Assembly: GCF_964204645.1 (NCBI RefSeq)
Contig: NC_134028.1
Coordinates: 18,545,653-18,609,652 of the forward strand
From: Tubulanus polymorphus
Taxonomy: Eukaryota; Animalia; Nemertea
Direction: 5' to 3'
DNA: 64,000 bases
Made by a program: the position numbers and the translations under genes. Of this stretch, positions 2,113-36,809 are shown piece after piece. The notes beneath the pieces are model-generated. The model had not been told where the DNA came from and did not search any database. It saw only the letters and a program-made list of their open reading frames with translations. How positions within the stretch are numbered: the stretch's first letter is position 1; each line of letters begins with the position of its first letter.

Positions 2113-2247
2113 TGTTATGTATTTGATATTGTATACACTGTACAGTGATGACATCTGGTGGTAACAATATAAGTTAGATTTTATCTCCAACATGGCTTCC
2201 TTGTTGTAATTGTATTTTGAGCTCTAGGACAACTCAAGGATCTAACA
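2113..2247 (+). repeat. 5' LTR of Gypsy-1
   Basis: Direct repeat of 6816-6950 with 2 mismatches seen in 135 bp. Confidence 0.97.
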
Positions 2248-2259
2248 TGGTGTCAGAGT
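2248..2259 (+). promoter_or_regulatory. Primer-binding site, probably tRNA-Leu
   Basis: TGGTGTCAGAGT directly after the LTR resembles the complement of a tRNA-Leu 3' end (TGGTGTCAGAAGT). Confidence 0.75.
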
Positions 2260-2295
2260 AGTGATTGGACCAGAATCGTAAGTCATCTGTTAAAT

Positions 2296-5200: not shown

Positions 5201-6482
5201 AGAAACTGGGAAAGACGACTCATTACAAGAATTGATTAAGTATGTAGTATCTGATTGGCCTGCAAGTAAGCAGAGCCTTGATTCTAGAATTAGAAATTAC
5301 TATGATTATAGAGAGGAAATTTGTTATACAGATGGTATTTTGTTTAAAGGGGAAAGAATTATCATTCCCTCTACATTAAGACATACAGTATTATCGGACA
5401 TTCATAGTAGCCACCAGGGTATTGTTAAAAACAAGAACTTTGCGAGAGAATTGTTTTTCTGGCCTGGAATTACCAAAGAGGAAGAAGACATGGTAGCAAA
5501 ATGTGAACGTTGTCAGGAGAACAGAAGACAGCAAGAAAAGGAGCCTATGATTGCATCTCCAGTACCAACGTTACCATGGAAACATGTGGCTGTAGACCTA
5601 TTTGATTTTGAAAGTGAGAAATGGTTGATATGTGTTGATTACTATAGCGAGTACTTTGAGATAGAGAAATTATGTCCAGATGCTACTGGTCCAACAGTCA
5701 TCAAACAGCTGAGAAAATGGTTTTCGACACATGGTATACCAGATACAGTCACGTCGGACAATGGCCCACCATTTGATAGTTTTGAGTTTGGGAGATTTGC
5801 TGAACGATATGGATTCAAGCATGACCCATCTTCACCGAAACATCCGCAAGGGAATGGTCTCGCTGAGAAAGCGGTAGGCATAGCTAAATCAATGCTGAAA
5901 AAATGTGCACAAACTAACCAAGACCCCTATTTGGCTTTACTGGTTATCAGAAATACACCTCGTGACAATATTGTGGGTTCACCTGCACAGCGAATGTTCA
6001 GTAGGCGTACGAAAACTCACTTGCCAACAGCACCCGCTAGATTACAGCCTGAGATTCGAGAACCAGAAGCTGTGAGAGCCCATATGGAACATCACAGGGC
6101 TAAGGCTAAAGCCTACCACGACAAAGGAACAAGACCTCTCGATAGGCTGAATACTGATGACACAGTCAGGATTAGAACTGGTAAAACTTGGACTCCAGCA
6201 CTGATGTTACCAGAAGAAAAACAACCCCGGAAACCCAGATCATATGCAGTATTAACCCCTAATGGCACTATTTTTGATAGGGCAGAGAGGATACATACTG
6301 ACAACGACGCTCAAGAGGTTGACCCTCAGGACATATCAGACCACAGGGTACTAAATGTTCCAAAACAAAATGCTCCAAAAACACCGATCAGGGTTCCTGC
6401 GACTCCTGAAGCCAGAACTCCTGATATTCAGCCTCCTATGCGGCACAGTCCTATTCCTATGTTAGTAGATAATTTCCCTTAA
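2296..6482 (+). pseudogene. Gypsy-1 gag-pol, broken by stops and frameshifts
   Basis: Gag (2296-), protease FKIDTGA, RT LDANSGFYQ..MPMGI..IVDD, RNase H CDAS..IEKELLA..ETDH, integrase HHCC and D,D(SDNGP),E. Split over at least 6 ORFs. Confidence 0.95.
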
Positions 6483-6815
6483 CCTAGTGTTCAACCTAGT
6501 CCTATCTCTGTCAAAGCAGATTATGGTCAAAATACTACTAGGTCAAACAACCCGCTAGGTATCTAAACACTATTTGGGTAAAATTGGAACCCCCTGATAA
6601 GTAATGGTCGTAAAGTGTTATTATGCTTATTTTCTATATCAGACAGTTTTTACTTGTAACTAGTTCAGTTAACAGGCTGGTTTTACTATTTTTGAGTATC
6701 CCAACCTATTTTAGTGTACGTTAGTGTTTAAGTTGATTTGTGTAATTTTCATATGGTTACTGATCATTGTTATTTTAGGATATTACTTTTCTTTAATTTT
6801 TGTTAAAAAAGAAGA

Positions 6816-6950
6816 TGTTATGTATTTGATATTGTATACTCTGTACAGTGATGACATCTGGTGGTAACAATATAAGTTAGATTTTATCTCCAACATGGCT
6901 TCCTTGTTGTAATTGTATTTTGAGCTCTAGGACAACTCGAGGATCTAACA
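6816..6950 (+). repeat. 3' LTR of Gypsy-1
   Basis: Direct repeat of 2113-2247, preceded by AAAAAAGAAGA and followed by the TSD ACTGG. Confidence 0.97.
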
Positions 6951-7868: not shown

Positions 7869-9129
7869 ATTAAACCGAGGTCTAAGGTGTGAGGTTGTCC
7901 ATCTTGCAGGTGTGGCGCTGGGAAGTGTGTCAAAGAACCTGTGAATAGCAGCTCTTCTGGTCCCCACACGTCAGAAACTCGAACGATCGATTAGGCCTCA
8001 CTGCATCCGTTATGAACCGGTTCAAAGATCATTAAGGCCGACTGAGTTTAAAGGCATCATTCCTGGCTGTTATATTGTGATAAAAAATTAAGTCACATAG
8101 CTAGCCACAAACAATCTACGTCACACATAACAAATGTTACAAAATCAATAACTGTACATACTCATTTCTTTTCACGGATGTATCTGATAACAATGTTTTT
8201 TACAGTTTGAGGCTTCTGCAACAAAATTTCAAGTCCCAAATCGTATATGGACTGGCCATGCTGTCATTATTCATCATCCTGTTTTCAATTTCACCATCGA
8301 AGGCATACACGTCATTACCACCAGACATCCATTCATACCGCTGGACTCCATGCCCAAATTCATACAAATGTAACAACTGAAGATTTTGCTTCACCAGCCT
8401 CATTACTTTCTACCACGAAGATGTTCATGTCAACGTCAGAATTGATGATTTGGTTAAAACCTATGGTGGCTTCGTATGTGATGGACAACACAGTGCCCCA
8501 GTCTCTCATGTTTTATTCTCGACAAGGGGCCATCTTCTACATTCCTGAGAAGTTTTGAGGTCGTCGGGGTCGAAATAAAGGTTTGACAGTCCCCCGAAAA
8601 GTGGTTCCCCAAATATCGGGACCTAAAAATTGGCCTCCGGAAAATGGTTATAATTCCCCTCGCGAGGGTCTGAGGTACTATTAACTCATTTGCGCACTAG
8701 CACCAGGCCTTCTACTATATGCCTGAGAAATTTCAGCAAGTTCTGAGTCGTTTGAAGGGTTATAATAATTTTTAGAAAATAGTCACTCTCGGGCCTAAAA
8801 ACGGATTCGCCGCTATTTTATTTGACTGTTTTAGTATAGTTCCTTGCTGTAAATAGTGCGTTATCGATCGTCTGCTCGACCGGAGCTAAAATTGAGAAAA
8901 TTTACCGGAACTATTTTTGATCGATTGCGCTGTAAATAGGACGAATAGGTAAGGGTTTTTAATCATTTTATCATCCAAATTGTACATAAAAAAGGTCTAT
9001 GATAGTTTTAAACAGTTTAAGATAGTTTAAAGCGTAATATTTGAGAATTTTTGAACTTTTTATAGGATGAATGCTCATTGCAGGTCACTGTGTCCCAATT
9101 CAATAAAATTTTACTGAAAAGACTACTAG

Positions 9130-9560
9130 ACCCGCTGTCAAATTTTGTTCTATGAAATTAGATGTTGTGAGGTTATTCATAAAATTTCAGGACGCACGGT
9201 ACCCTAAAAATATTTTTCATACCCCAAAAACCCTGAAATATTATCATTTTAGGAGTCATTTGGACCCGCTGGTTTTTGGTTGATCCGAGATCCGGTGTCG
9301 TATTTTTCTACGATACATTAGATACTTTTACGTGTACCCTAGAAGTTTCAGGGCACTCGGTACCCTAAAAATATTTTTTAGACCCCCAAAATGCCTTAAA
9401 TTGGCAAAATATTGATTTTTTCAGAGTCATTTGTACCCGCTGGTTTTTTGGTTGAACCGAGATCTGGTGTCGTATTTTTCAATGATACATTAGATACTTT
9501 AACGTGTACCCTAGAAGTTTCAGAGTGCCAGGTACCTTAGAAATATTTTTTAGACTCCCC
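9130..9560. repeat. ~173-bp tandem repeat, about 2.5 diverged copies
   Basis: ACCCGCTG...GATACATTAGATACTTT..GTGTACCCTAGAAGTTTCAG..GGTACC.TAAAAATATTTTT recurs at ~9130, ~9263 and ~9436. Confidence 0.8.
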
Positions 9561-10277
9561 GAGATACCACAAATTTGCAAAATATTGATTATGTATTGAT
9601 GTCTTTCATTTCAGCAGGGAAGCGGATTCTGATTACGATCCATTCGCGGATGAATCCACAAATATCGACACGGATGGTTAGGATCTTACTGCCATCTATG
9701 GTTTTGTACTACTGAACATACTTCTAATTACAATTTGACTCAATTTCAGTATCAAGCGATGAGTTGGAGAAGTCGACTCCGTCCAAGAAATTGAAGCTGA
9801 CTACGTCGAAGTCGACTCCATTGAAAAAGATGACTCTGTCGAAAAAGATGACTCCGTCGACGAAGTTCTATGAAAATTCGTGAACCGAACAAAGCTGCGA
9901 ATCCAGTCCCGGCTCCGGCCCCGGCAAATCAGTTGCGTCGGAATCAACTGGACTGGAACGACTTCCAGTATGCGATTCCCCCTGAAAAGTTTGAATTGTA
10001 TGTCCATCAAATAAGTTTGATGGAGTTGCAACTGTGACGAAATCGGCGTGGCGATACACTGACAAATCACCGTTATTACCTGATTTCATCACATATCTAT
10101 CTGGAAATTTGATGGAAGTGAGTACCAGATATCTTATTGTCACAATGAGATTCCACGTATATTTGTATGTTACCTTTTATTTCCAGCTTCTGACCGCAAC
10201 CACCGTCGATACACTAAAGCGACTCGACCAGCACCTCAAAAGCGTGCACCGAACCATTTGCCCTCGCGTCAGGGAGA

Positions 10278-10590
10278 TGTTAGAATCTATCTAATTATAT
10301 TGCTATTGTGATCTAACTTCTTTCATGTCTCTGTATCTAGCTGCCACCTGTTGGTAATTATGTGAACTTGTCAGACTATCCTTAAGATACTGACATTACT
10401 ATATATGGTAATGCAGCAAGTCACTGCACCATTATGAATATTCATGAGATGATGATATTTCTGTATTTGGAGGAATAAAGTTTAGTTCTGGTTTAGGCTT
10501 CAAGAAGTGAACATCCTTGTTGCTGTTGTCTCTCTGGTTTTGGTCTATCCACCATCAAGATCTACCATGGACGCCTCCTAAGGTTTAACA
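10278..10590 (+). repeat. 5' LTR of Copia-1
   Basis: Direct repeat of 14588-14889 with several substitutions and indels. Confidence 0.95.
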
Positions 10591-13500
10591 GGTTATGGGC
10601 CCAGGAGGCTTGTTTTTGATGGTGAAGAGAAAAATTATGAACTCTGGGAGATAAAGTTTATGGGCTTTATGAGAATCAAAAAGTTGATTAAAATCTTCGA
10701 GCCAGCCCCTGATGCTAATTCAGATGATGCTTTCAACAGCTGATGAAAAAGCTCAGACATTCGCGGAATTAATCCAGCTGTTAGATGACCGCAGCTTATC
10801 GCTAGTAATGAGGGACGCTAAAGACGATGGCCCGAAAGCATTAGAAATATTGCGAGAACATTATAGGTCGAAAGGTAAACAGCGCATTATCGGACTTTAT
10901 ATTGCATTGACCAACCTAAAAAATGGATAAGATGAAAGTATAACGGACTATGTGATTCGTGCAGAAAATTCTGTGACTACCCTGAGAAGTGCTGGAGAAG
11001 AAATAAGTGACAGTCTCTTTATCGCGATGGTGATGAAAGGTTTACCGAGTGAGTATAAACCTTTTAATATTGTAATTACTCAGAATGACAGTGATAAAAA
11101 GATGTGGTTCAGTGAATTTAAAGTGGCACTAAGATCATTCGAGGAATCAGAAAAATGTCAGCAGGGTGCCAGTGCTGGTGAAGACAGTAGTCATCAGAAT
11201 GTCATGAAAATTCAGGCAGGACCTATGCCTAGAAAAAACATTGTATGTTTCCGTTGTAACAAAACGGGACATAAGGCAGTGAACTGTTATTGTAATAAAG
11301 GCAGAAATAATATGCCAAAACCGTGACAAAAATGGTGTGGAAACTGTAACTCCCATAATCAAAACGAGTGTAGAAAATTGAAAGACACATCAGGCATTAA
11401 ATCAGTGGATGATAGTGAATCTTTCCATTTTAATGTTCGTGTCGGTCCTGGACATGAAAGGCAGAGTGATGACAGCCTTCTTGTCGTTAGTGGGGCTACA
11501 TCACACATTCTCAATGACAGATCAAAATTTGTTAAGTTTGATCCAACGTTTGATCCATCCAGGTATTTCATTGAGCTTGCAGATGGTAGCAGGACAAATG
11601 AACTGGCAAAGAATAAAGGTGATGCGGAAGTATGTATGATTGACAGTTTGGGGATTCCCCGCAAATTTGTAATGAAGAATGCATTATTTGTACTGTCATT
11701 CCCGGATATATTCTCTGTTCGTGCAGCTACAGAGCAGAGTGGATGTACTGTCTCGTTCAAACCCGATTCATCGGAAATAATCACTCGTGATGGAATAAAG
11801 TTTGACGTTGAAAAACATGGAACACTTTATCATGTGAATAACATGATGTCAACATTCAATGATACGAACACACTAAAGGAATGGCATGCGATATTAGGAC
11901 ACTGTTACGTCGAGGATATTGTGAAACAAGAGTCAGTCACCAAAAGAATAAAAATAAAAGGAGATAAATCGGATTTTCAATGTGAGCCTTGCGTTATGGG
12001 AAAAATGGCACAATATATAAACGGAACTCCGGACAAACGTGCAACTCGTGCATTTCAATTTGTGCATTGCGACCTTTCGAAAGTGGAACCAGCATCAAAA
12101 GAAGGTCACCAATATGCTTTGTGCTTCATTGACGATTATTCAGGGACATTAATGACTTACTTTTTGAAAGAGAAAAGTGATGCAGTTGAAGGATAAAAAC
12201 GTTTTCTGGCGGACAGCGCTTTGTAAGGAAAAGTCACAAGTCTAAGAAGTGACGGTGGTGGTGAGTTCATTTCTGAACACTTTTTTAGGGTTTTGGTAGA
12301 AAACCATATCAAATTTGAGAAGAGTGCACCTTACTCTCCCCACCGAAATGGCACGGTAGAGAGAAGTTGGAGGTCCCTTTTCGAAATGGCAAGGTGCATG
12401 TCTCTCGAGTCTCAAGTTCCTAAGTATTACTGGACATATGCAGTAATGGCAACAGCATACATTCGGAAAAGGTGTTTTAACCGTAGGCTTGGTATGACCC
12501 CTTATGAGGCAATTCTAGGTAAACAGCCCGATATAAGTCATATGCATCCTTTTGGTTTGAAGTGTTATGCCTACATCAATATCAAGAAAAAGTTAGATGC
12601 AAGGGCTGAGCAGGGTATTTCCCTTGGTTATGACAGGCACAGTCCTGCATATCTTGTGTAAATTAAAGAAAAAAATGTTGTAAGGGCAGTCAGATGTGTA
12701 AAATTTACTGACAAACCAGTAGTTGATTTTATTGCCAATGATTCTGAAGAGTTAATACCTGACACCCCAGGATTCGAACCCCGAACCTCGAAAAGAGGAA
12801 GGAGACGAGAGGCGCTACCCACCTAGGGAACATAAAAAGCCAACCTACCTTAAAGATTATGAAACAAATGATGATAAAGCAAATTGTAGTGTAGATTATA
12901 CGTATAAGGTGTTGTATCATGTACCCTCAAATTATGAAGAAGCAATGTCCTGTAGTGATTCGAACCTTTGGCAAAAGGTTATGGACGAGGAAATGGATTC
13001 TCTCAAAGAGAGCAATACTTTTACATTGACAGCCTTACCCCCAGGTAGAACTCCAGTGGGGGGTAAATGGATTTATGCTATTAATGAAATACCACAAGGA
13101 GTTAAGAGATACAAGGCTAGGTATGTAGCGAAAGGGTACAGCCAAATAAAAGGCATAGATTTTGAAGAAACCTTTTCACCTATGGCAAAACTAACATCAT
13201 TACGGGCATTAATGCAAATTGCTGTACAGTATGATATTGTTTTTCATCAGATGGATGTGAAGATGGCATTTTTAAATGCACCTATAGATGTAGAGATTCA
13301 TGGTTATTTTGTTGATTCAGATACAGGTGAAACTCTTGTTTGTAAGCTGAATAAATCTATTTATAGATTAAAACAGTCCGGTAGAAACTGGAACAGTGTT
13401 TTACATGCATATCTTGTTGACAGTAGCTTTCTTCAGAGCAAGGTTGATCCGTGTATATACATAAAACATGTCAAAAATGATGTAATTGTGATCCTAGTAT

Positions 13501-14441
13501 GGGTTGATGATTTACTTATAGGGTCTACTAAAGAACCCTTATGCTCTGATGAGAAAGAAGGTCTTAAAAGAAGGTTCAAAATAAAGACTTAGGTTTATTG
13601 AATTATTTCCTAGGTATGGAATTTGTACAAAATGATAATGAGATTACAATGTCTCAGAAGCAATATGTATCAAAGTTGATTGAAAAATTTGGGATGTCGG
13701 ATTCAAAACCTAGAAGTACCCCAAGTGAGTCAAAGTTTATATCTGTCTCAGATAAAGAGGTTGATGAAACATTGTATCGTGAAATTGTTGGAAGCTTAGT
13801 ATATGTTATGATATGTACTAGACCAGATATCAGTTGGACCATAACAAAATTGTCACAGTTCTTGTCAAAACCAACACATGATAATTTTGTAGCAGCTAAG
13901 CATGTACTTAAATTTCTCAAAGGTACAATCGATTATGCTTAGAAGTTTAAGAAATGTGAAGATGGTTTACAAATAGTGGGCTATAGGCGATGCTGACTGG
14001 GCATCGTCGTTAGAAGACAGACGAAGCAAAACAGGATATTGTTTTGGTCTTAGTCAGACAGGCCCTCTTATTTCATGGAAATCACGTAAACAGCCTACTA
14101 CAGCATTATCTTCATGTGAAGCCGAATATATGGCTATAGCAGCGGCTGTTCAAGAAAGTTTGTATTTGATTCAGCTCATGAAAAGCTTTGATTATAAATG
14201 TAATTATGATTCATGTACTGTTTATGAAGACAACCAGGGTACAATAGCATTGTGTAAAAATCCTGTAGATCATAAGCGATCTAAGCATATTGACATTAGG
14301 TACCACTTTATTCGTGAAAAGTTGGCCAGTGGAGAAGTTGATATAGTATATTGTCCCACGGATTGTATGGTTGCAGATATACTTACAAAGCCAGCTACAA
14401 AGTGTAAATTGAGCAAGTTTAAAAACTTCACGTTCGGGTAA
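10567..14441 (+). pseudogene. Copia-1 gag-pol polyprotein, many stops and frameshifts
   Basis: CFRCNKTGHKAVNC knuckle, SGATSH protease, WH..LGH/C..C and GKM integrase, KARYVAKGYSQ, QMDVKxAFL, VWVDD RT, YEDNQG..KHIDIRYHF..ADILTK RNase H. Confidence 0.95.
10591..10604 (+). promoter_or_regulatory. Copia-type PBS (internal half of initiator tRNA-Met)
   Basis: GGTTATGGGCCCAG immediately after the LTR, the same motif as the Drosophila copia PBS. Confidence 0.9.
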
Positions 14442-14587
14442 ATCCTATTAAGTATCGTTTACTATCCAGTGTATGTTTTTCTAGAATCAGCTGATAATAT
14501 CGCAGTGTTTTGAAATTTTTTCAGTGTGTCAATGTTATTTGTATATAGCCTATGTTATTATTGAAAGAAGATAAGATCAAGTGGGGG

Positions 14588-14889
14588 TGTTAGAATTTAT
14601 TTAATTATATTGCTATTGTGATCTAACTTCTTTCATGTCTCTGTATCTAGCTGCCACCTGTTGGTAATTATGTGAACTTGTCAGACTATCCTTAATATAC
14701 TGACATTACTATATATGGTATTGCAGCACGTCACTGCACCATAATGAATATTCATGAGATGATGATATTTCTGTATTTGGAGAAATAAAGATTAGTTCTT
14801 TTTGAACATCCTTGTTGCTGTTGTGTCTCTGGTTTTGGTCTATCCACCATCAAGATCCACCATGGACGCCTCGCAAGGAAGGTTTAACA
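14588..14889 (+). repeat. 3' LTR of Copia-1
   Basis: Direct repeat of 10278-10590, followed by the TSD GGAGA. Confidence 0.95.
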
Positions 14890-16569
14890 GGAGATGCTGA
14901 TGGCGATGTACAGTAAGTTTACTTATAGAATACCATTACAGGAAGGAACGGACATGGTTCAATTTTGATACACTGTTATTATTTTCAGTCGACATCGCTG
15001 AAAAGAAAAACTTGTTAGACGCCGAAGAAAGATGGATCAGATTCAACAAAGTTTTTAAGTTATACTAACAGTCACTTTTCAATGTAGCAACTTACTGTAT
15101 GAGATACATTGCAAAACGAACATATTTCAGTATGCGGACGTGTGAATGCAATGAAAAATTCCGGCGATTTAATCGGTATGGCAGTTGAATTGTTTTGAGT
15201 TCATTTGCCTTTAAACTCGTTCTATTTGAACTCGTTCTAGCTTTATGTTTTGTTCTACTTGGAAGTTAGTGCTTGTTCAATTGTTTTTCTCTTTGTGAAT
15301 TATCCACTCATGTTCCACTGTAGAAATCGACGAAGAGTACTTTTTTAATTTTTCACGAGAGGCACCAATAAACACGGAATCGACGCCGATGAAAATACGC
15401 AAAACGACATCCAAAACGAAAGGCAAAAAACGCAAGGGCAAAGTAAGTATTAGCCTAATTATTTGATCTTCTATTGTGAAAAATCTTTTGAAAACGCTAC
15501 TTTTCTTCAGCGCAAGCAACACGCCTGCCCGGTTTGTTCAAAAATGATAACGCAAATGCCGGAGCATTTGCGAAATAAACATGAATGGAGCAGGGAAAAT
15601 ACACGCAACTGGCAACGTTTAGAAGGCTCGTCAGGAATGGCCCCTCGTTCCAATCTGCGCGGAAAATATCGGCAGTTAAAACAGTGCGCGCAGTGTCGGT
15701 TGTTTTTGTTGGCTGGGCGAGCATATCCGGTGCATGCCAGGTCAGTGATAGAAAGTTTTGACGATCTTTGCAAGTGCATTTAGGCGATGAAATGAAATGT
15801 TTTTCTCTTTTTTGCTTAGTCGACCCTGATGACAATAAATCGACAAAGGAACCGAAAAATGACGTCGACAAAAAGCATGATTCAGATCCGCTGCCGACGG
15901 ATTCAGATTCCGATCCTGTTTCATCTGTGAATGTTAGCTACAGCAGCGGCGGCGGCGGCAGCAGCAGACTAGCGAATCGGATGAAGTTCCCGTTGTGCTG
16001 TTGGAAAGTAAGTCCCTACTTATTTTTTCTCATATTTTGTGTGAGCTGCATTAGGTGTTCGTTGTTTTCCTTGCAGAGTTTCAGGGAGACTATCGCGAAT
16101 GGCTGAAGCAAGTTTCAACAGACGAGAAACCGGTCACTGGATATATTCGAGACTCTATGAATTATCTTAAGTTTGCTAAAGGCAAAGTGAATGCAAACAG
16201 CGCATCCTTGTGGATTTCACAAGAAATGGAAACGAAACAGCCGGGAAAGATTCGGAGTTATATGTACACACTTCGAAAGAAACTTATAGAATTTATGTGA
16301 GATCTGAGTATTATTACAATATCAACATTAACAATGTTTCAACTGAACACATTGATGATTGTGACTTTTAGTTTGGACTAGAAGATTGCGGCTGCTCCGA
16401 AGAAATCCTAACCAGATTAGAACGTCGGCTGGTTAGGTTGGCGGAGGTCAATGAACAGGTCCACAAAGAACGATTCCATGAGGTCCATGAACTCCAGAAA
16501 GGTGGGTATTATTATTTGTAACCCTTTTGCACAAATATCGACATCTGTTTATATTCTGTTTTCATGAAG

Positions 16570-17333
16570 CGCGACTCCTGAAACTAATGATATAAAGCAG
16601 ATTTTGAGTTCTGACATGTCCATCGAAGCTGTTCAACTCCTCAAGAACCCTCATGTAGATTTTACCCCGGAAGGTTTTCGCTTAGTGCGAAACTTTCTGC
16701 TCTTTGTCGTCACAGCTCTGGGTGCGAACCGACCCTCGCTGACAATAGGGATCACCCTGAACCATTTATTGCAGGCGAAACACGACGATAAGCGTGATCT
16801 GTACAGCATCAATGTATTTTGAACTATTTATTCATTGAAGAGAGTTCCAAAAATACATGTAAAACTTTTTCAGGTTGTCAGACACAAAACAACTGCTACA
16901 TACGGGGCCGAATTCATCCATCTAGAAGGAACACCGTATCGCATGCTACTTCTATTTGCCAAGTGCCTCTATGAAAGAACCGCTGATAAAACAATGTGCC
17001 GCACAAACAAGGGAGTGGAACTCAACGCCACATATCTCAACAAGTAAGATAAATATACATTTTATTAACAAATTCAATGGAAAATATTTAATGTTTTCTT
17101 TTCTTAGACCGTTAGCCAGCTACCTCAGTTGCACCATCGAAAAAAAAAGCATTACGCCTACTTCAATACGTAAGAGTATCATGACAGCTATGTGCAATAC
17201 TGACGGTGCTACGCGAACCAAGCTAAGTCGATATATGTTACATCGCCCTCAAACCGCAGAAAGATTCTACAACCTGGAGGAGGGACATCTACACACAATG
17301 GACGTTGCGCGTGATTTAAGGAGAACATTTGGA
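16570..17333 (+). CDS. Tyrosine recombinase catalytic domain (exons ~16570-16813, 16874-17043, 17108-17333)
   Basis: In-frame splicing gives RNFL..GANRP (R), VVRHKT..YG (K), TPTSIRK (second R), MLHRPQTAERFY (H and nucleophile Y), in the phage-integrase-family order. Confidence 0.85.
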
Positions 17334-18127
17334 GTATGTATATCGACTCAATACAACTTGCATTTAAAGGTTCCGGCAAGCATGACATTTCACTTTTTTC
17401 TGTAGTTGGACTGTGGCGTTTTGGAAACGTAACGAAGAGGCAGCGCCATGGAATCGGCGGGCAAAGCCTCCAGCGAGCCCGCAGCGGTAAGTGACTTCTC
17501 ATTCGATCAATGACAGCTTTCTATTCACAGCAGCTGCTTCAATCGTCAATGTTTATCCTCTTTTTCAGACGGTTACGAACGAAGAAAAGTGTCTGACAGA
17601 ATCAAAGGGCGATGAACCAAACCAATCAAGCTCGAGCGAAGAAACAGAATTGGACAAGGGAGCATTATATTTGCCATCCCCCCGAAGAAAAAAACAAGGG
17701 TAAGTGTGTCGCACAGGAGGTGTTATCATTGATGAAATGGAAAATCATACTCATTCAACTTCTTTTTCAGTCAGGGCCAGTAAAGCGACAAAAATAAACT
17801 GCAATTGAGCAGAGAGTGATTCGCCGCACATTCCACGAATATCGTTCGACAGAAGAAATCAGGGCTGTTACAAAAAAAGAATGGTTTGATTAATAAAATT
17901 GTTGCCAAATATCTAAATGGGGTTGAAAAAATGCGCCAATTTCTGAGAAATCTTTGAAATTTTTGTACATGGACATGAAATAAACATGATTTTGCTGATT
18001 TGAAAAGAATATTTTTTGTTTGTCATAAACTTTGAGTCACACTACCAGTTTCTGCTTTCAATGACTAGGATCCTTCTCACTGTGGAATCGTAACAGTAGG
18101 CAGCATTAAAAAGCTTAATTCTTCTTA

Positions 18128-18912
18128 ATTCGAACCCAAATCTCTAGGGTTAGTGCTGTCTTCTAACCCGGTTGGCCTTGGTGCACGGTTGACTTAAATG
18201 AATATCGGGATTCGAACCCTAATCTCTAGGGTTAGTGCTGTCTTCTAACCGCTTGGCCTTGGAGCACGGTTGACTTGACCGTTTTTCCAGCGTAGTTCTT
18301 AGACGATCGTGACAACGTTTTGAAAGCAGTAGCTTCTAGCTACTAGGGTATTGAGCACCAAATAGCTCTCACTTATCCTACGCCCATACCCCCAGTGTCA
18401 CCTAGAAATGGTGTTAAATACCCCTCAAAAGTGAACCGAGACGTTAGAGCTGTCTTCTAACCCTTGGCCTTGGTGCACGGTTAATTTCGGGATTCGAACC
18501 CACATATCTAGGGTTAACTCTGTATTCTAACGAGTTGGCCTTGGGGCACGGTTGACTTTGTCATTTTTCACCGAGTTCTTCGCTGGCAAGAAATCGGTTT
18601 TAATACCCCCTTAAGTGATCAGGCGTTAGGGCTAAGCACGCGTAAGAGTCATTGGTCTTGGCGCATAGTTGACTTTGTCGTTTTTCGAAGAGTTCTCCGA
18701 CGCCGAAGGTAGGTTTTCAAAGTCCGCCCTTAAGGAAACTAGAGTCTCGAGCACCAAATTACTATTACCTACCCGAAGCAGGCACCCCGACTATAGGCCG
18801 GAAACATATGGTTACGGTAGAAAGCCTAGAAATCGTTTTAAATACCCCTTGAAAGTGGACCAGAAACGTTTAGGGTTAGAGCTGTCTTCTAACCCTAAAC
18901 CTTGGTGCACAG
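18128..18912. repeat. Array of degenerate units containing the palindrome GGGTTAG(A/T)-GCTGTCT-TCTAACCC and TTGGCCTTGG.GCACGG
   Basis: Copies at 18147, 18229, 18443, 18511 and 18868, the last a perfect 13-7-13. A related unit lies at 26138-26200. Confidence 0.85.
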
Positions 18913-18988
18913 ATTTCTTTCGAAGGTTTTCGAGGGACCGAGCTTAAGCTTTATGGGTTTAGACTACCGAAACGTTATCGTTTACCGA

Positions 18989-19411
18989 TGTTCGAGGTTA
19001 TATAAGCTGTAGATTTGTATCGAGTATTGTACTGTGTTTGTGTGACTGAGAATCTATTATAATGTCACTTTGTAGGGTCTATGTAGAGTTCAGCTCAGTT
19101 TAGTATAAACATTCCTTCTCAACCAATCATGTTAACTGTTGAATTTTGAGATTATCTAAACCTCAGAAATGCTTAACACATTTTGTACTGAGATTTTATC
19201 ATGTGAGGACCTTCAGTTCAGAGTGCAAAATATTACGGTATGTTCAAACTAAAATTGATTTCCATTGTTTATTTGAATCTGAATTTACTATAAGTGTTAT
19301 ATTTGAAGTCTAAAATTGTATAATTATTATGTTACAGTTAATCGTCAAAATCGTCATCGAAATAAAGAAGTAATTAAAGCAAGGACGCATCAATGTATAT
19401 TTTGGTGAAGA
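18989..19411 (+). repeat. 5' LTR of BEL-2 (3' end eroded)
   Basis: Matches 25622-26052. Confidence 0.9.
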
Positions 19412-19459
19412 AAGGCCCTTACATTTATTAACGTAATATGGCATCGAAAGAAGATTGGC

Positions 19460-22400
19460 TTGGAACGGAAAGTCAAAATACCAGCACACGAGGTAAAACG
19501 TACACAGAAGTTGGACTTAGTTATCCAAAAGAAGTTAAAAGAAGTTAATCCATTATCAAGATCGCTGCAAAGAAATCATGATGCTTTGCAAAGTTTGGTA
19601 TCTGGAGAAAGCAGTAATTATTCTAAAGCCCAGACTTCATATTGTTTATGGGCTAATGAGTATGACCTCTATCTCAGAACGAAAGAACAGTACTGCAGTC
19701 TGCTCACGAAAGAAGAAAAACGCGATTACTCAATGGAAACCATGGAATGTGATAAAAAATTACGGCAGATGAAATCGTCAGTTGAACATGATTTGGTTGA
19801 AATGTCGTCGGAGGCTATGCTAATGAGGCCTCAGGACTCTGCATCGCAGCGGTGCCAGTCTCACTCAGCGACATCACGATCAACTCATCGTTCATCAATA
19901 AGTATAATGTCAGCTAAGTTAAAAGAAGAACAAAGAAAAGCTGAATTAAGTGTTCTTTTGAATAGTATGAAGAAGAAGCAAGACCTTCGAAGGAAGCAGC
20001 TCGAATTTCGACAATTAGAAGAGACACTAGATTGCGAGACTCAGATGGAGATTTCTGAGGCAAAAGGTCCAGCTAATGATATGATAGACGGGATATCAGA
20101 ATGCGAATCATCAACTAAAAAAGAGAAAACTTTGCAGGTTGTTAATTTCCCTGTGGATCCACCGCCGCTGAATCCACAGGTACCAGAATTCATTCCATAT
20201 CAGCCTCTGCGTCAGCCTCCAGTTACCAGCCATGATTCTTCTACTGCTGAACTCGAGACCATCGTCAAGCATATCAAAAGACCAGCGATAGAAATTAGGA
20301 AATTTGACGGGAATCTTTTGGAATTTCAAAAATTCAAACGGCAATTCTTATCCGGTATTGTTGCGAACACAGATCGCGACTACGAACGCTTGAATTACTT
20401 TGATCAGTACACAACAGGAGCAGCCAACAAGATAGTTTCTGGCTTGAGTTACTTGGAGCCATCCCGAGCATACGAGGTGGCATTACTTGAGTTTGAAGAA
20501 AGATATGGTGGGCCTAAAATTATTGCGAACGCTTTCATCAATAAAGCTGTCAACTGGCCCAATATAAAATATGACAACTGCAAGGGTCTTGATGAATTCT
20601 CGTTGTTTCTGATGGAGGTTCATAATGCGGTAAAATACATCCAAGCTCTGAAACTATTAGACTATCCTGAAAATCTTCGTAAACTGATCTGTAAATTACC
20701 GCAAAATTTACAAGAAAGGTGGCGCTCTGTTGTGCAATCTACAAAATCAACTGGTAATGCAGTTTCATTAACGACGCTGGTAGACTTCGTTCGAATAGAA
20801 TCGAAGAAAGTGAACGACCCTACCTTTGGGCGAGATATGATGCGTTTTTATGATGAAAGAAATACGTTGAAGCCCCAGAGAGCCGCAAGAAGAGGCTTCA
20901 CCGCGGCTATTGTTTCTAGCAGCTGTAGAGAACATTGTGTCTACTGTAAAAATGATCATATGACAAAAGACTGCAAATCAATGATGAAAATCCCATATAG
21001 AGACAGAGTGGAAATACTTTTGAAGAATGGTTTGTGTTGGGGTTGCCTAAAAACCGGGCACCAACTCTATCTGTCATGATAAATTGTTATGCCAGATACG
21101 TAAACGACTCCACCCAACAGTCATGATGAGAACCGGAGTTTCCTGCGTAATCGTGAGCAATCTGACCAATCAAAATTGTCTACAGATGCAATGCTGTAAA
21201 TAGCTCAGAAAATGATAATGGAACCTGGAGGAAAGATTACTCATCAGCTACTAAAGCTAAAGACCGGTTTGGTTTCTGTACTATGGCAGTAATACCTGTG
21301 AGAGTAAGATTGAAAGGAACATGTAACGATGTACTGACATATGCATCTCTAGATCCTGGGAGCAGTGTGTCCTTTTGAGTCTCTGATGACAAGGCTCAAA
21401 GTTAGTGGCAAAAGGGTTAAATTAGATCTTCAAACTATGAACCAATCTGGCCCGATAGATACGCAAATGTTGAATGGTCTAGAGATTACGAGTATGGATG
21501 AGAGTAGTCCAGTTTCATTACCAGTTGTGTACTCAACCGAATCGATGCCTATAACAAAATAGCTCATTCCAACTCAGAGTGACATAAGCAAATGGTCTCA
21601 GTTAAATGATGTAAAATTACCTCCAATGATGGATACAGATGTTGGACTTTTGTTGGGCAATGGAGTTCCTGATGCATACTCACCACTCGATGCCAGAACT
21701 GGGCCGAAAGGCACTCCGTATGCAGCGTTGACAAGATTTGGATGGGTTGTGTGGAGTTTAGTAAGACTCCAATGTGAAGAGAAAGCTACAGATAAAGTGA
21801 AACTGATGAATATGGTTATTTCCGACCGAGACGAACTTCAAAATTTGGATCGGTTAGTCTGTGGAGCTGTTAAATTGGACTTTCCCGAGTGTACGTCTGA
21901 AGAAAAACATCATTGGTCTGTTGAAGATAAAACATTCATGATGAAGATGGATGCATCTTTTATAAACTAGGGGTCCAGGGACACCATGCCCACTTGGGAA
22001 GTGGTTCCAAATGCTCAACAATCTAACAATTTCAATATTCAACGCCCCCCTGGTGACCATAAACAAAAACCAATGACCTTGAAACTCACCACAATCATAG
22101 AACATGTCAGCAGCTATGATTTTGTAATTGATTGTGATAACAAAATATGCCTCGTTACCAATTTAATATGGAAATACTAAATTACTGTATTATTCAACAC
22201 CCCCTGGTGACCATATTCAAAACCCAATGACCTTGAAACTCACCACAATCATAGAACATGTCATGAACTACAACTTTGCAATTGATCATGGTAACAAAAT
22301 ATGCCTAGGTACCAATATAATAAGTAAATACTGATGAATTCTACTATTCAACGCCCCCTGGTGACCACATAGAATAACTAATGCCCTAAAAACTCTCCAC

Positions 22401-25400
22401 AATAATAGATGATGTCATGAGCTACAACTTTCCAATTGATTGTGGTTACAAAATATGCATAGGTACGAATATAATATAGAAATGCTAAGATATTGTATTA
22501 TTCAACGCCCCCTGGTGGCCATATACAAAATCCAATGACCTTGAAACACTCAACAATCATAGAACACGTTATGAGCTACTACTTTCTAATTGATTGTGGT
22601 GACAAAATACGCTTAGGTATCAATATAATGTGGAAAAACTTTTTCCCACTTACGAATGAGTACTGGTGACACCAAGATGGCCGCCAATTGCGTCATAACT
22701 GGTTGATGAAAAATACCTGTATAAAACATCCCTTTCCAAAGAATACCCATCACAAATTGCAATGAGAAATGGCAAACTAGTAGGAAGCTACAGGACTCAG
22801 AAGTCGGGCCAAAATTAACATTTTTGGGCACTAAAAAGATTATAGGACAGCCATCTTGAGTCCGATCGGCCGAATTTTTGTTAAGCTGATGGGTCCTGGG
22901 GGGATTCACATATATCCGTAAGATCATGGTAATTGATCAAAGCATCTTCAAAATTTCCCTCAAAAAGTTCAAAAATGTGTAAAAAGTGCTGATTTTGGCG
23001 AACAACAATGGCTGCCAGTCGGCCATCTTGATTCTGACAGGGCCAGTTTTTGGGCTGAAGATGTGTCTAGGGTAGATACATGTGTAACCCAAATATCAAG
23101 ACATTACCTCTAAGCGTCTTCAAAACTTCCCAAAATAACTGGATTCCGTCTACGGACGGACGGACGGACGAAAAGTGAACGCAATAGCCCGCTGGGACTA
23201 AAGTTCCAAGTGGGCTAAAAAAGATAACGACTATCAGTTACCATTGCCTTGGCGAAATTCTGAAATTAAGCTGCCAAATGATATCCACCTTGTACAGAAA
23301 AGATTGTCAAGTTTGAAAATGAAGCTACAAAGAAATGAGAAATTTCGTTCTGACTACAATGACTTCATGGAAAACATTATCAACAAAAAATATGCTGAAC
23401 GAATCCCTCCGGAAGAAATTGAGAATTGCTGCAAACAAGTAAGGTACATTCCTCATCATGGTGTGTACCACCCTAAAAAACCAGAAAAGGTCAGGGTGGT
23501 TTTTGACTGTACAGCTTCATACAAAGGGATGTCATTAAATGACTTACTGTTACAGGGACCTGATCTAACGAACAACCTGGTTGGAGTCTTGATTCGTTTT
23601 CGTCAAGAAAGTATAGCATTTATGGGCGATGCAGAATCTATGTTCTACCAAGTATTGGTCGACCCATGTGATGTAGATTCATTGAGATTCCTTTGGTGGC
23701 CTGATGGAGATATCGCCAAAGACGCAGTTCCATACAGAATGCTAGTACATTTGTTGGCGCCATATCTTCCCCAAGCTGTTCTAATTGGGCGCTTCGAAGA
23801 ACGGCCACAGATAATGTCGATAAGTATGATTCTGAAGTCATAAACACCATCAATAAGAACGTCTATGTAGATGACTGTTTAAAATCGAGAAGAAATGATG
23901 GTACAAATGTAAGTTTCATTAAAGACCTGATATCTTTGTACGCTGATGGCGGATTCCGGTTGACAAAATTCATCAGTAATGAAGTATCTGTAATGAAAGG
24001 CTTACCAGAAAGTGAGCTAATCAAATCGTGTCAACAATAAGAAAAAAGCTTGGATTTTGGTTTACCCACAGAAAGAGTTCTCGGAGTTCATTGGAACTTG
24101 GTGCACGATAGCTTTTGTTTCAAGATCGTAATCAAGGATAAACCAAATACCAGAAGAGGAATATTGTACGATATGACCCTTTAGGATGGGCAGCGCCATA
24201 CGTCTTTCCTGCAAAGATACTTCTACAAGACTTATGTAGATTAAAAATTGGCTGGGATGAAGAGATACCGGAAGAATATCTGAATGTATGGTTAAATTGG
24301 AAGAAAGATGTGTCGAAACTGGAGAAGTTAAATGTCGCGAGATGCTACAAATCAGATGTATCAGATGAATTGAGATCGTGTCAGTTACACCATTTTTCTG
24401 ATGCATGCGAAGTTGGATATGGTTCAGCCTCATATCTTCGCATAGAAGATAAAGATGGAAAACTGAGTAATTCCCCTTAAAAAAACGTTAACCATACCAC
24501 GCTTGGAGTTAACTGCAGCAACGTTACTCATCAAAATCAACAAGATGGTCTTGAGTGAAATTGAATACCCAATTTCAGAGGTACACTTCTGGACTGATAG
24601 CACTGCTGTATTAAAGTTCATCATTAATGACACGGCCCGCTATAAAACTTTTGTAGCGAATTGAGTGAATACAATAAGAGAAGGCTCAGATGTCAAACAA
24701 TGGCATCATATCGATGGTAAACTTAACCCCGCTGACATGGCTTCGAGAGGATTATCTTTAAGAAAGATTGAACCAAACAGTGAAGTCTGGTTAAATGGTC
24801 CCTCTTTCCTGAGACATCCGGATTTCCATCTCACAGTGGAATCAGAATCGGATTCATGATTCTATGCTACAACATAGTGTTTAGTGGGAGTTTAATCCTC
24901 CCGGTGCCTCTCATTTTGGGGGTGTCTGGGAACGATTGATACATTCAATCCGGAAAGTTCTATACGCTTTATTAAAAGAACAAGGTTCACACCTTACCGA
25001 TGAGAACCTCAACACATTGTTTTGCGAGATTGAATATATATTGAATAGCCGTCCGATATCTCGCATGAGCTCCGATCCGAACGATTTAGATTCGTTAACT
25101 CCGATTCATTTGCTATTACTTCATCGTTCATCTAATTTTCCTCCGGGCGTATTTGATCATTCAGATACGTATGCGAAACGACGTTGGAAGCAGGTTCAAT
25201 ATCTGGCGGATATATTCTGGCGAAGATGGGTTGGTGAATATTTACATATGTTGCAGGAATGTATTTAATGGACCCAAAAACGACGGAACGTTAAAATCGG
25301 TGATATCGTTTTGATTGTCGACAGCGCCGTTAGAAGTTCGTGGTCGATGGTTAGAGTCGTAAACGTATGTTGCGATAAAAATGGTTTTGTCCATTCGGCG

Positions 25401-25475
25401 ACTATTGAAACAAGTTCGAATATAATTCGGCGACCAATCGACAAGTTATCTATGCTAATTGAATCCGACATTTAG
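19460..25475 (+). pseudogene. BEL/Pao gag-pol
   Basis: Gag KFDGN..CVYCKNDH..C..LCWGCLKTGH, RT YIPHHGVYHPKKPEKVRVVFD..LLQGPDL..YVDD, Pao RNase H TIPRLEL..FWTDS..NPADMASRG, integrase GGVWER..LNSRP..FWRRW. Confidence 0.93.
21965..23219 (-). mobile_element. Non-autonomous Helentron/HINE (DINE-1-like) insert with ~154-bp internal tandem repeats
   Basis: Inserted in an A-run with no TSD, and the BEL frame rejoins as ..FIKDNDYQLPLPW. Subterminal inverted motif GCCCACTTGG/CCAAGTGGGC, (GACG)n at 23152-23171, short terminal hairpin near 21970-21985, four core repeats at 22037, 22192, 22346 and 22500. Confidence 0.8.
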
Positions 25476-25621
25476 TTGCTTTATTATGTACGCAAAACAT
25501 CGTCTGCTCGCGCTGTATTGTGAGATATATTAAATTAAGAATTTTGAATTATTACTAGGGTTTACTGTAGTTTTGATTATATTGATTCAGTAATTGAATT
25601 TCCTCAATTAGGGGATGGGGT

Positions 25622-26058
25622 TGTTCGAGGTTATATAAGCTGTAGATTTGTATTGAGTACTGTACTGTGTTTGTGTGACTGAGAATCTATTATAGTGTCA
25701 CTTTGTAGGGTCTATGTAGAGTTCAACTCAGTTTAGTATAAGCATTTCTTCTCAACCAATCATGTTAACTGTTGAATTTTGAGATTATCTAAACCTCAGA
25801 AATGCTTAACACATTTTGTACTGAGATTTTATCATGTGAGGACCTTCAGTTCAGAGAGCAAAATATAACGGTATGTTCAAACTAAAATTGATTTTCATTG
25901 CTTATTTGAATCTGAATTTACTACTTAGTGTTAAGTGTTATATTCGAAGTCTAAAATTGTATAATTATTATGTTACAGTTAATCGTCAAAATCGTTATCG
26001 AAATAAAGAAGTAATTATAGCAAGGATGCATTAATGTATTTTTTGGTGAAGATTTACA
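25622..26058 (+). repeat. 3' LTR of BEL-2
   Basis: TGTTCGAGG...TTTACA, direct repeat of the sequence starting at 18989. Confidence 0.92.
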
Positions 26059-26832
26059 ACTGATGCTAGGTATCCCCATGTCGCGATGTTCGACGACCTT
26101 AGAATCGGTTTAAAGACCACCCTAAAAATCGACCGGGCGTTAGGGTTAGGCTTAAGTTAGAGTCATTGGCCTTGGGGCGCGGTTGACTTGGTCGTTTTTC
26201 GAGTGGTTTCCAAGCCCTCGGGGTCCAACTTTACCGCCCTACCATTGGTAATTGACATCGGGTACCCCGAGTCCATACCCGGTCTACCATTCGGTAATTT
26301 GGCGTCGACGTCGACCGACTATAAGGCGTTTTTTAAAGCCGCTCAAAATAGCCGACGGCAAAAAACGCGTTTCGGAAATCCTCTGGACCCTCTTCTCACC
26401 CTCTTGACACTAATCCTCTCCTCTCTAGACCATAATCCTAAATTCGATATAAAACCGATGTAAATATAGAATTTACGACTGCTTTACGACGCCGTAAATA
26501 TAGCCACTTTGTTCAGGGTAGGCCTAAAAAACATGTTTTTTACTAGTCTGAATACCAGTCATTATTACCAGTTCCCTACAACGTCTGACGCTTAAAGTAT
26601 CATAAAGAGGTTAACTCCTGTTAATTGCAATGTAACAACTGAAAAAATTATCGCTGGTTTTAAGTGAATCCTCCATGAACGCATTGTAGAACTCACCAAT
26701 GAATGTAAAGCGCTCACGCGGAGTAACGCCCAGGAATGTGCGACTCCCCCCAATGACACACCGCAGTCAGTCGCCCCTTTTCGGCTTGCTAACCACTATT
26801 CGAAGAACAATGAAGCTGACAGACATGAACCG

Positions 26833-27399
26833 GTGGCTGAAACGGTCACTCTGTTTTTGGGGGAAAGCATGTCAAAATTTATTGACTTAAAACAAATCGA
26901 AAACAGCTATAGGAAACCAATCGAGGTCCGGAAAGCAGCAAGAATTAAGAGCATCCCTAAAGGAGAAGAAATCTCGAAATCCTTCCAGAACGTAATTATT
27001 CAAACGGGTGTCAATGATTTGCGTAACCCAAAAGAGGGAGTGGAGCCAATTTCGACGGCCTTTGTTGATCGAGTGAATGATATTTCGATTCGTGATGGTT
27101 GCATGATCCTAGTGTGTTTACCGATTGTGTCCATGGTCGATCCGTTCAACTATCGTTCGTCTGATCGTAATCCATTCGACTGTAGTCCGTCCGACCGTGA
27201 TCCGCTTGATGGTAGTCTGTCCAACAGCAACCTGCTCGTCCGTAGTCGTCGGGTCGTTACCCGCCCTACGATAGTCCATCTGGTAGTAATCCGTCTGATC
27301 ACAAACGGCTTGGTCATAAACCACACGCTCGTAATTCGTCTAGAAGAGGGAACCGAAACCCCCCTAATAGAAATACCAGCTGTGTCACAGATCATCTAA
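26833..27399 (+). pseudogene. LINE ORF1 remnant with SGNH/esterase-like motifs
   Basis: LFLGESM (GDS-like) and IIQTGVND blocks, upstream of the ORF2 remnant. Confidence 0.6.
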
Positions 27400-27802
27400 G
27401 ACATGACAGCCACCATGACATCAAGGGGAACTCCGCTCTCCTGATTAAAACTCTTATCCACGCGTTAAATAAATCGTGATGAAGCTCGGTGCTTTTCATC
27501 GCGTGGTACAGGATACGTCCTATAGTCATTAGTTAGAGATAAAGAAAAAACCGCATCGGCGAAAAAAATACGAAATGGAAGAAAGAAAATTGTATCAATG
27601 TTAGTTCTTTTATCCCTATACATATATGTTCTGATACAACTTAACGCATACTAGATCAAAGAACCCTTATCGGTGCATTTTCAGATTCGAACTAATAAGT
27701 AAAAGCATTTAAGTACTCAGTTTTGAATCTCTTTTATCAATGTATGTGCAGTTTCAACCAAGTGTTATCACCAAATATTTGGTTTTGTATCTTTTTTTTT
27801 TT

Positions 27803-27980
27803 ATGTATGTTCAGATAAAGCATATCAAATTCTATCATAAGTATTCGGTTATGTATGTTTTTAATGTATGTTCAGATACAGCATATCAAATTCTATCATA
27901 AGTATTCAGTTATGTATCTGTTTTTAATGTATGTTCAGATACAGCATATCCAACTCTATCATATGAATTAGGTTATGTAT
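27803..27980. repeat. ~60-bp tandem repeat x3
   Basis: ATGTATGTTCAGATA.AGCATATC.AA.TCTATCATA occurs three times. Confidence 0.85.
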
Positions 27981-28660
27981 CTCTTATATCACTTTTTAAT
28001 AACCACAATGTATATAGAACTATGAACATAAGGTCTCTTAGAATGCTGATTGAAGCATTGCTTTACGGGTTTGTGTTTTAAAGAAGAACCAAAGCCTTCG
28101 TGTAAACAGTACAAGTTTATTTTATCCCATTTGTGACTTTAGTGTCAACTAAAAATTGTTACTGGTTGTAAGTCTAATCACCCTGTTACTATCATTCCTC
28201 AGGTGCTCTTGAAGTATACTTATTACTGGCTTTTAATTTTACTATGTCTTGTAATAATAGGTATAAGCTTTCAGTGAGTAGTTGGAACTTTCATGGTTTG
28301 TAATACACTGACGAAGATAATGTTCTTATGTGTAAGTTGGATGATCCTCACTTTTCTTTGAATTTCAAGGAGGACATAATTTGCTTACAAGAAATTAAAG
28401 CGGGTGAAAGGGATGTTTGATCTCTTGAAGGGTATCTTTCTTTAAATAAGGTTAGAAAGAAGCGTGAGACAATACTCCTCGTTCTCTATGAAAAATAAGG
28501 AGTATTTAAATACGTTGGAGAAAATTGAAATTGATATTTGTAACTATTCTCAAGAAGGTGATATTTTGATATTAGGAGACCTAAATGCTAACATTAATTG
28601 TAACGACCTCGACTATATAATTGCGGATGATGAGGAGAATTGGAAATCCAACATCCCCCT

Positions 28661-28855
28661 GCTCTGTATATATACCCCCGTTTTTAATCTTAATCTCACA
28701 CCTGACGATGATCTCTAGGGTGAGATCGAAACGTCGTGTCTTTTATATATTTTTGATTGAATAAATAAATTCTGGTTTTTAAATTCTTTTAATCTGTAAA
28801 TAGTGGGATTTTATCTTATTATCCGTTCACCACGTTTGAGTGTGGTTATCGTTCT
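28661..28855 (+). mobile_element. Short Penelope-like (pLTR) or retrozyme fragment inserted in the LINE
   Basis: Flanked by the 8-bp direct repeat ATCCCCCT (28653-28660, 28856-28863). Contains a hammerhead motif and AATAAA. Confidence 0.7.
28698..28739 (+). ncRNA. Minimal type I hammerhead ribozyme
   Basis: ACAC-CTGACGA-T-GATCTC-tagggt-GAGATC-GAAA-CGTC-GTGT: conserved CUGANGA and GAAA core, 6-bp stem II, stem I ACAC/GTGT, palindromic ACGT in place of stem III, GUC cleavage triplet. Confidence 0.85.
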
Positions 28856-33155: not shown

Positions 33156-33317
33156 ACGCAGGGGCGTAGGAACGTCTCGGGCCTACGCCGCTCCGTGTCA
33201 ATACAGTATCATCATAGCTACATTTATTAGTTGGGCCCCCCTAAATTTGGCTCTAGATCCTCCCCTGGATCGTCACAATTTTTGAACCAGGCGCCATATT
33301 GGATGGGTCGATCTGAA

Positions 33318-36166: not shown

Positions 36167-36809
<643 letters not shown>

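Follow-up and report, generated by a model that had tools for sequence, protein, structure and literature searches.

A decayed tyrosine recombinase-type gene beside a telomere-like repeat array in Tubulanus polymorphus: a probable low-copy Crypton-like element carrying a loxP-shaped palindrome

Introduction

The sites of Cre/loxP, Flp/FRT and XerCD/dif consist of 11-13-bp inverted arms around a 6-8-bp asymmetric spacer. A 64-kb stretch of the genome of the nemertean Tubulanus polymorphus (contig NC_134028.1, positions 18,545,653 to 18,609,652; hereafter the window, with positions counted from its first letter) harbors an intron-containing gene of the tyrosine recombinase (YR) type and, 910 bp from it, a palindrome of this very geometry. 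This raises the question of whether the two constitute an animal counterpart of such systems. The initial annotation had proposed that they may, describing a dead, intron-containing YR gene followed by an array of loxP-like sites made of telomeric repeat, which would mimic or target telomeres. The reading favored here, with a probability of roughly 0.6, is that of a decayed low-copy Crypton-like element in which the array provided accessory binding sites and the perfect dyad arose as a one-off template-switch mutation. Cryptons are DNA transposons reportedly described by Goodwin in 2003.

A Perfect Palindrome Within an Array of Degenerate Repeats

At 18868-18900, two 13-bp arms that are perfect inverted copies of each other flank a spacer of 7 bp, exactly as initially annotated. 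Of 200 sequences simulated from the window with a third-order Markov model, 3 held any repeat of this kind, and the palindrome is beyond random chance. A contig from sequencing run X1, whose sample may be the source of the window assembly, differs from the window at a single letter over 17936-18985, so the palindrome is probably no assembly artefact. A profile search of the window with the repeat unit recovered exactly seven units (E 2e-28 to 9e-22, the same units having built the profile), and beyond these no window match was better than E 0.67. The units are degenerate direct repeats arranged head-to-tail, six within 18120-18935 and one at 26097-26211:

18120-18206 and 18204-18297, + strand: units 1 and 2, arms pairing at 8/13 and 7/13 positions
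18401-18490, 18486-18580 and 18586-18698, + strand: units 3, 4 and 5, arms pairing at 8/13, 4/13 and 4/13
18825-18935, + strand: unit 6, which holds the 13-7-13 palindrome at 18868-18900, arms pairing at 13/13
26097-26211, + strand: unit 7, beyond a BEL/Pao retrotransposon, non-palindromic, arms pairing at 3/13

The four degenerate copies reported earlier (units 1-4) are present in the same orientation, three of them sharing the spacer GCTGTCT and the fourth having TCTGTAT. As recombination sites they are poorer than described, with only 8, 7, 8 and 4 of 13 positions paired, and the array is larger, having seven units and not five; the two that had been missed, 18586-18698 and 26097-26211, are both non-palindromic. 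The unit was found nowhere else in the window, nor was a repeat match obtained in viral contigs or metagenomes. An Rfam search of 17900-19000 was blank, and within the window no similarity was detected between the array and the region upstream of the YR-type gene.

Conservation along the unit is strongest in the downstream CTTGG tail and at a few bases of the core, and not in the arms. Covariation between the arms gave values that 133-197 of 500 shuffles reached on five measures (the lower bound being also given as 129), a test of low power as it compares seven related paralogous units. Unit 6 departs from the others at bases 18897-18899, which are AAA there and TGG in the six other units; accordingly, the four bases ahead of the conserved tail read TTGG in six of the seven units and TAAA in unit 6. 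Each of these three neighboring bases, found in no other unit, pairs with the left arm, whereas three independent substitutions would all do so about once in 27 times. Template switching can turn a near-perfect into a perfect inverted repeat through adjacent changes in one arm, as set out by Loytynoja and Goldman (2017; PMC5453318). A template switch in unit 6 is likely because the three adjacent changes found in this unit only all complete the pairing with the left arm; assignment to this class of mutation is read here from paralogous units rather than from parent-offspring or outgroup comparison. The palindrome is internal to the array, since unit 7 lies beyond the BEL element and the array, with that element removed, extends ∼235 bp past the palindrome.

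Anatomy and Decay of the YR-Type Gene

Exon boundaries read by hand from the sequence define a gene of 15 exons and ∼840 codons at 9615-17957 (+ strand); its beginning, near 9615, lies well upstream of the start at 15500 given in the initial annotation. All 14 introns have GT-AG boundaries in this reading, 13 of them being 60-83 nt long and one 273 nt; such short introns, like the relatives found, would fit an invertebrate host. From N- to C-terminus, the gene product would have a low-complexity stretch, a single clear C2H2 finger, a helical part, the catalytic region and a short helical segment at its end. The exons, together with the long terminal repeat (LTR) retrotransposon that interrupts them, are arranged as follows (P0001 being a related protein introduced below):

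9615-9676, 9750-10117 and 10187-10277, + strand: 5' exons, low-complexity N-terminal part with stops (GT-AG boundaries by hand)
10278-14889, + strand: Copia LTR retrotransposon inside exon 3 (Pfam gag, integrase and RVT_2; LTRs 96% identical)
14895-14912, 14989-15050 and 15324-15442, + strand: remainder of exon 3 and two further exons (hand reading)
15511-15740, + strand: exon encoding one C2H2 zinc finger (CPVC...H...H), followed by another Cys pair that is degenerate (sequence; Pfam zf-Di19)
15820-16501, + strand: linker exon and two helical exons (16077-16307 and 16382-16501), presumed core-binding or SAM-like, named from position
16570-17333, + strand: predicted YR catalytic domain, encoded by exons 16570-16813, 16874-17043 and 17108-17333 (open spliced frame; identity to P0001)
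17406-17957, + strand: 3' exons with an acidic linker and a small C-terminal helical domain (hand reading; similarity to P0001)

The zf-Di19 match of the finger exon (E 0.0015) is below the family cut-off, and searches of profile libraries gave no informative family match for the helical exons 16077-16307 and 16382-16501. The gene is dead, as had been annotated: it is split by the Copia element, which is flanked by the target duplication GGAGA (10273-10277 and 14890-14894), and it carries stops. One in-frame stop is placed in the helical region, at 16298, and the C-terminal domain is broken first by a stop codon at position 17795 and then by a frameshift around 17875 (an indel relative to other copies). 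Further frame changes occur upstream in the gene, some of them possibly exon-boundary errors of the hand reading. Immediately upstream of the first called exon, a 172-bp degenerate tandem repeat occupies 9182-9590.

Relationship of the Gene Product to Tyrosine Recombinases

The residues R16730, K16886, R17169, H17241 and Y17268 follow one another within a single 225-codon reading frame that is open after splicing (16491-17429), and catalytic roles were assigned to them by the usual order of YR motifs. The usual YR motif is H-x-x-R; the window protein has Thr instead of the first His. Of the zinc fingers plus YR domain claimed initially, the R-K-R-H-Y series stands, and the fingers come down to one clear C2H2 finger.

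A search of 1.84 billion representative proteins gave two matches, P0001 (E 2e-19) and P0002, the latter being dropped as a tandem-repeat artefact. P0001 is XP_074661520.1, the uncharacterized protein LOC141914152 of T. polymorphus, and shows 46-48% identity across the three catalytic exons. It has a C-terminal segment similar to the short one of the window gene (34% over 32 amino acids), is devoid of the N-terminal part and ends in a weak WSC match. A Myb-like identity of the C-terminal domain was considered on resemblance only and was set aside, as Pfam gave no support for it on P0001. In a set of 5.8 billion proteins, P0001 was again the sole match to exon 17109-17333, to residues 1-215 of P0001 and to a 4-row alignment, these word-limited searches being weak negatives. 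No relative of the YR protein was found in viral contigs, and tblastn against phages was blank; a metagenome locus (L001) was discarded, as it contained a stop, lacked any further exon and was taken for a chance match.

Structure matches of P0001 residues 1-215 in the ESM Atlas included unnamed chordate clusters (template modeling [TM] scores 0.88 and 0.78), a named Phage_integrase cluster (0.73) and a Preplasmiviricota cluster (0.72), and feature matches of the same segment fell in unnamed chordate and arthropod clusters (0.96-0.98). Similarly, exon 16571-16813 of the window had feature matches to unnamed mollusc-rich clusters (0.92-0.95). Two AlphaFold models of P0001 had predicted local distance difference test (pLDDT) values of 45 and 41, and three fold searches with these poor models were without meaningful match. 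The domain PF12012 (DUF3504), by which CryptonA is recognized, gave no Pfam match in the window exons or in P0001; a trace of it was seen in one Atlas cluster (score 0.87), in which 12% carried DUF3504. The residue order of the window protein and the predicted fold of its one close relative indicate that the gene product is likely a YR-type recombinase.

Diverged Copies in Sequencing Reads

Four sequencing runs were aligned to 14880-18985, among them the raw reads of a second, different sample (X4). In X4, 626 reads were recovered, with 221 at ≥99% identity to the window, 58 at 95-99%, 206 at 90-95% and 141 below 90%; 347 of the 626 are thus less than 95% alike to it. The depth in X4 was 21-29 over 16113-17345, 6-8 over 18031-18304 and ∼8.5 over 18716-18852. 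These depths suggest that the gene exists in ∼2-4 (about three) diverged copies, and that the window form of units 1, 2 and 6 is present in only one of them. The X1 contigs showed the same pattern, contig depth being a rough guide. Units 1 and 2 are probably a duplication local to this copy.

Among 27 exon differences between copies (from 40 of 378 rows), 7 were synonymous and 20 were not, and other copies also carry frameshifting indels. The differences are as neutral decay predicts, and no purifying selection was seen in them. Nine raw X4 reads run from 14897 into the upstream exon and not into the LTR (compared by eye), from which it follows that Copia-free copies exist. Other copies also contain a tandem duplication of ∼118 bp at 17466-17585, in two variants.

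Other copies leave the window sequence at 18029 and re-enter it at 18362. A variant unit bridging 18381 to 18463, present in six reads and in contigs of X1 and X2, keeps the outer left arm and pairs at most 5/13 positions (by eye). Two joints, 18665 to 18936 and 18198 to 18936, rejoin the window downstream of unit 6; as they re-enter at 18936, other copies share 18936-18985 but not unit 6. The dyad of unit 6 does not appear to mark a crossover point or an element end, for the shared 18936-18985 and the array continue past it. As far as the reads show, other copies are without the palindrome and the unit ends elsewhere, both of which the initial annotation had named as counting against it.

The departure of the copies at 18029 and their return at 18362 would also be expected if the array had belonged to another repeated element, as its end or a remnant of it, or were a minisatellite, in either case unrelated to the neighboring YR gene. 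Such an origin agrees with the character of the window, densely filled as it is with nested, unrelated elements and satellites, with the dissimilarity of the array and the region upstream of the gene, and with the fact that no record spans both. Yet the depth of the array is about as low as that of the gene in X1 and X4, unlike that of an abundant unrelated repeat, and its unit recurs nowhere else in the 64 kb. A separate origin is hence considered unlikely. The similar low depth of gene and array also argues that the two would be linked outside this locus.

Telomere Likeness and a loxP-Like Function

Each arm of the palindrome holds TTAGGGTTAG, which contains one full TTAGGG hexamer. The statement that the sites are made of telomeric repeat was too strong, as there is one hexamer per arm and no tandem TTAGGG or TTAGG run anywhere in the window. 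When one mismatch was allowed, TTAGGGTTAG had nine matches in the window against 3.5 expected, six of them in the array, where they are homologous copies. Unit 7 contains a degenerate direct run of four TTAGGG-like words. A second dyad is found in unit 2, at 18213-18235 (AACCCTA-5-TAGGGTT), and on account of it the telomere-like words alternate in orientation along the array. The core may represent a real telomere-like binding motif. Nothing at the locus lies in a telomere tract, and the mimicry or targeting of telomeres proposed initially finds no footing here.

A functional reading of the palindrome would make unit 6 a loxP-like crossover or resolution site, with the other units as decayed duplicates and TTAGGG allowing the element to recombine with telomeres or to mimic them. 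The 13-7-13 structure with its asymmetric spacer is real, rare by chance and close to a YR-type gene, and its spacer recurs unchanged in three further units, which also retain a dyad of 7-8 bp. Precedents of a kind exist: animal YRs of nimaviruses with a C2H2 finger accompany telomere insertion (PMC10871703), and CryptonV families are cited as targeting microsatellites (PMC8869645). This reading is difficult to reconcile with the array itself, in which the dyad is perfect in one of seven units, the arms do not covary and no other unit has the outer right arm of unit 6. The site is internal, and other copies have non-palindromic variants and rejoin the window downstream of unit 6. No telomere tract is present in the window, which moreover contains two other perfect inverted repeats with arms of at least 13 bp, 52286-52323 (15-8-15) and 58685-58720 (17-2-17), away from any YR gene. 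A conserved loxP-like site, as initially annotated, is therefore decidedly unlikely. The same degree of doubt applies to the broader proposal of an undescribed intron-rich lineage of animal YR transposons, in which arrays of telomere-like (TTAGGGTTAG) dyads would be bound and recombined and unit 6 would be the surviving consensus site. If the Cre/lox-like reading were true, an animal YR DNA transposon would for the first time have a defined dyad target, insertion might be directed to telomeres by this route, and a new site-specific recombinase would become available. The unit 6 dyad may have had an internal resolution role.

Nested Elements and Candidate Ends

Two further features bear on the extent of the element:

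18989-26058, + strand: BEL/Pao LTR retrotransposon nested in the array (Pfam DUF1759, Peptidase_A17 and DUF5641; LTR pair ∼96% identical)
26212-26520, no strand assigned: GC- and CpG-rich stretch after unit 7, candidate right end (composition only)

The BEL/Pao element has the target duplication ACCGA/ACTGA. The reverse transcriptase domains present from 9615 to 26211 are all parts of the two nested retrotransposons, Copia and BEL, each with its own LTRs and target duplication; hence, the YR is the only apparent transposition enzyme of the unit. If the CpG-rich stretches near 8560 and 26520 are its ends, the size of the unit without the nested LTR elements can be guessed at roughly 6 kb. Searches within the window with blastn and nhmmer revealed no terminal inverted repeats (TIRs) and no significant repeat shared between the left and right flanks. 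Paired GTAAATA motifs, presumably forkhead-like, were observed by eye near both candidate ends, at 8849-8856, 8932-8939, 26460-26469 and 26494-26503.

The want of recognizable ends, together with the fourteen introns and the ∼2-4 copies, could also mean that the gene is a domesticated host gene or a passenger of a larger element, such as a giant transposon or an endogenous DNA virus, which was segmentally duplicated and is now a pseudogene. Endogenous nimaviruses have multi-exon YR genes, and a Preplasmiviricota cluster is among the structural neighbors in the Atlas. However, the 55 open reading frames (ORFs) of the window searched in Pfam had transposon-type matches or weak zinc-finger or enzyme matches, several had none, and no viral hallmark was among them; nor do the copy differences show the purifying selection expected for a recently active host gene. 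This origin is regarded as quite unlikely.

A Crypton-Like Element and Its Relation to Known Systems

Under the favored explanation, that of a Crypton-like element, the recombinase would have released the element as a circle, which then reintegrated through recombination between short sites located at the true ends of the element. Excision and reintegration of this kind, mediated by the YR at short terminal sites, have been proposed for Cryptons (Kojima and Jurka 2011; PMC3212892). The repeats near the right end, with their TTAGGGTTAG-like core in alternating orientation, would most plausibly have been bound by the DNA-binding domains of the element itself rather than serving crossover. After its death, the copy would have taken the Copia and BEL insertions and undergone local duplication of repeats. 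In unit 6, an existing 7-8-bp quasi-palindrome would have been completed to 13 bp by a single template-switch copying error. The initial description of a dead, intron-containing YR gene is in agreement with this, as the gene, present in a few copies, would have worked as part of a Crypton-type DNA element.

Several observations weigh against this explanation. The gene has no YR profile match in Pfam, PHROGs, NCBIfam or PDB sequence searches, and P0001 carries Cys at the column of the Tyr of the window protein. No contig or read of the runs aligned to 14880-18985 spans both gene and array in another copy. Element ends, target duplications and empty sites were not found at the locus, so that mobility is presumed. 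Regarding the repeats, unit 7 also has an exact TTAGGGTTAG, and this, together with the six of nine near-matches placed in the array, makes the telomere-like core not obviously meaningless. A 7-8-bp inverted core is common to units 1-3 and 6, and some dyad symmetry is thus older than the perfect site. The uniqueness of AAA was read from the seven units of the window.

Compared with Cryptons as characterized in the accessible part of PMC3212892, the unit likewise occurs in an animal, contains introns, has no recognized TIRs and lacks its own reverse transcriptase, the YR being its one apparent transposase. It differs in that it gave no DUF3504 Pfam match and in that no 4-6-bp direct repeats were recognized at its termini. 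The Crypton features given in that part of the article do not include an array of repeats close to one end, as in the window unit. From its sequence, the unit appears to behave like a Crypton, yet it has neither the DUF3504 of CryptonA nor the genes of a nimavirus.

Nimaviral YRs, according to Kawato et al. (PMC10871703), combine a C2H2 finger with a SAM-like domain, may be encoded by several exons and accompany insertion into telomere repeats. Those of endogenous nimaviruses are associated with telomeres and 28S genes and are distinct from Crypton, DIRS and Starship YRs (PMC10871703; Bao et al., PMC7016691). A link between telomeres and YRs in animals is therefore not new, being known from nimaviruses (PMC10871703). 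The window gene would resemble these as a predicted animal YR with a C2H2 finger (sub-threshold), a presumed SAM-like N-terminal part (by position), multiple exons and association with a telomere motif. Unlike the nimaviral loci, the window has no nimavirus genes among its 55 ORFs in Pfam and no telomere tract; this comparison was made by description. With Cre/loxP, Flp/FRT and XerCD/dif, the locus shares the 13-bp inverted arms and short asymmetric spacer of unit 6 and a YR-type gene nearby, whereas it differs in having the dyad in one of seven units, not kept between copies, without covariation and at an internal position.

The lineage was not found described in the literature searched, the scope of which excluded Repbase Reports and most subscription journals. 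If the favored explanation is true, the locus would indicate that animals harbor a lineage of zinc-finger YR elements that is as yet unnamed, a result of modest value, and it warns that a palindrome shaped like loxP and adjacent to a recombinase may be no more than a by-product of mutation.

Other Features of the Window

The window as a whole is a nest of transposable elements with Gypsy, Copia, BEL/Pao and hAT domains and several satellites. A Gypsy element at 2114-6950 has 134-bp LTRs that are 98.5% identical, and stops in pol. Another Gypsy-type element, at 42909-49677, has a pol frame that stays open for 1282 codons; after it comes an ORF of 300 codons (48775-49677), for which Pfam gave a weak GDSL-lipase-like match (E 0.01). 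The region 26668-29700 comprises a 243-codon ORF without a Pfam match, which we take to resemble the esterase-like ORF1 of L2/CR1 long interspersed nuclear elements (LINEs), and then a decayed, truncated LINE-like region. Intron-containing hAT-like transposase fragments were recognized by eye at 30600-33200, and a separate hAT dimerisation domain is located at 39703-40215. Nested long inverted repeats (172 bp at 99% and 132 bp at 83%) at 33318-34253 are similar to miniature inverted-repeat transposable elements or foldback elements. A pure (TG)n tract of ∼320 units extends over 36168-36806. Satellites were found at 22036-22629 (period 154 bp), 50395-51722 (191 bp), 53046-53447 (93 bp), 56135-57133 (50/89/139 bp) and 58734-59483 (89 bp). 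Long ORFs of 544, 352 and 336 codons at 60438-63630 (- strand) and 37328-38338 (+ strand) had no Pfam matches, and the adjoining ORF 63316-63630 showed weak zinc-ribbon matches.

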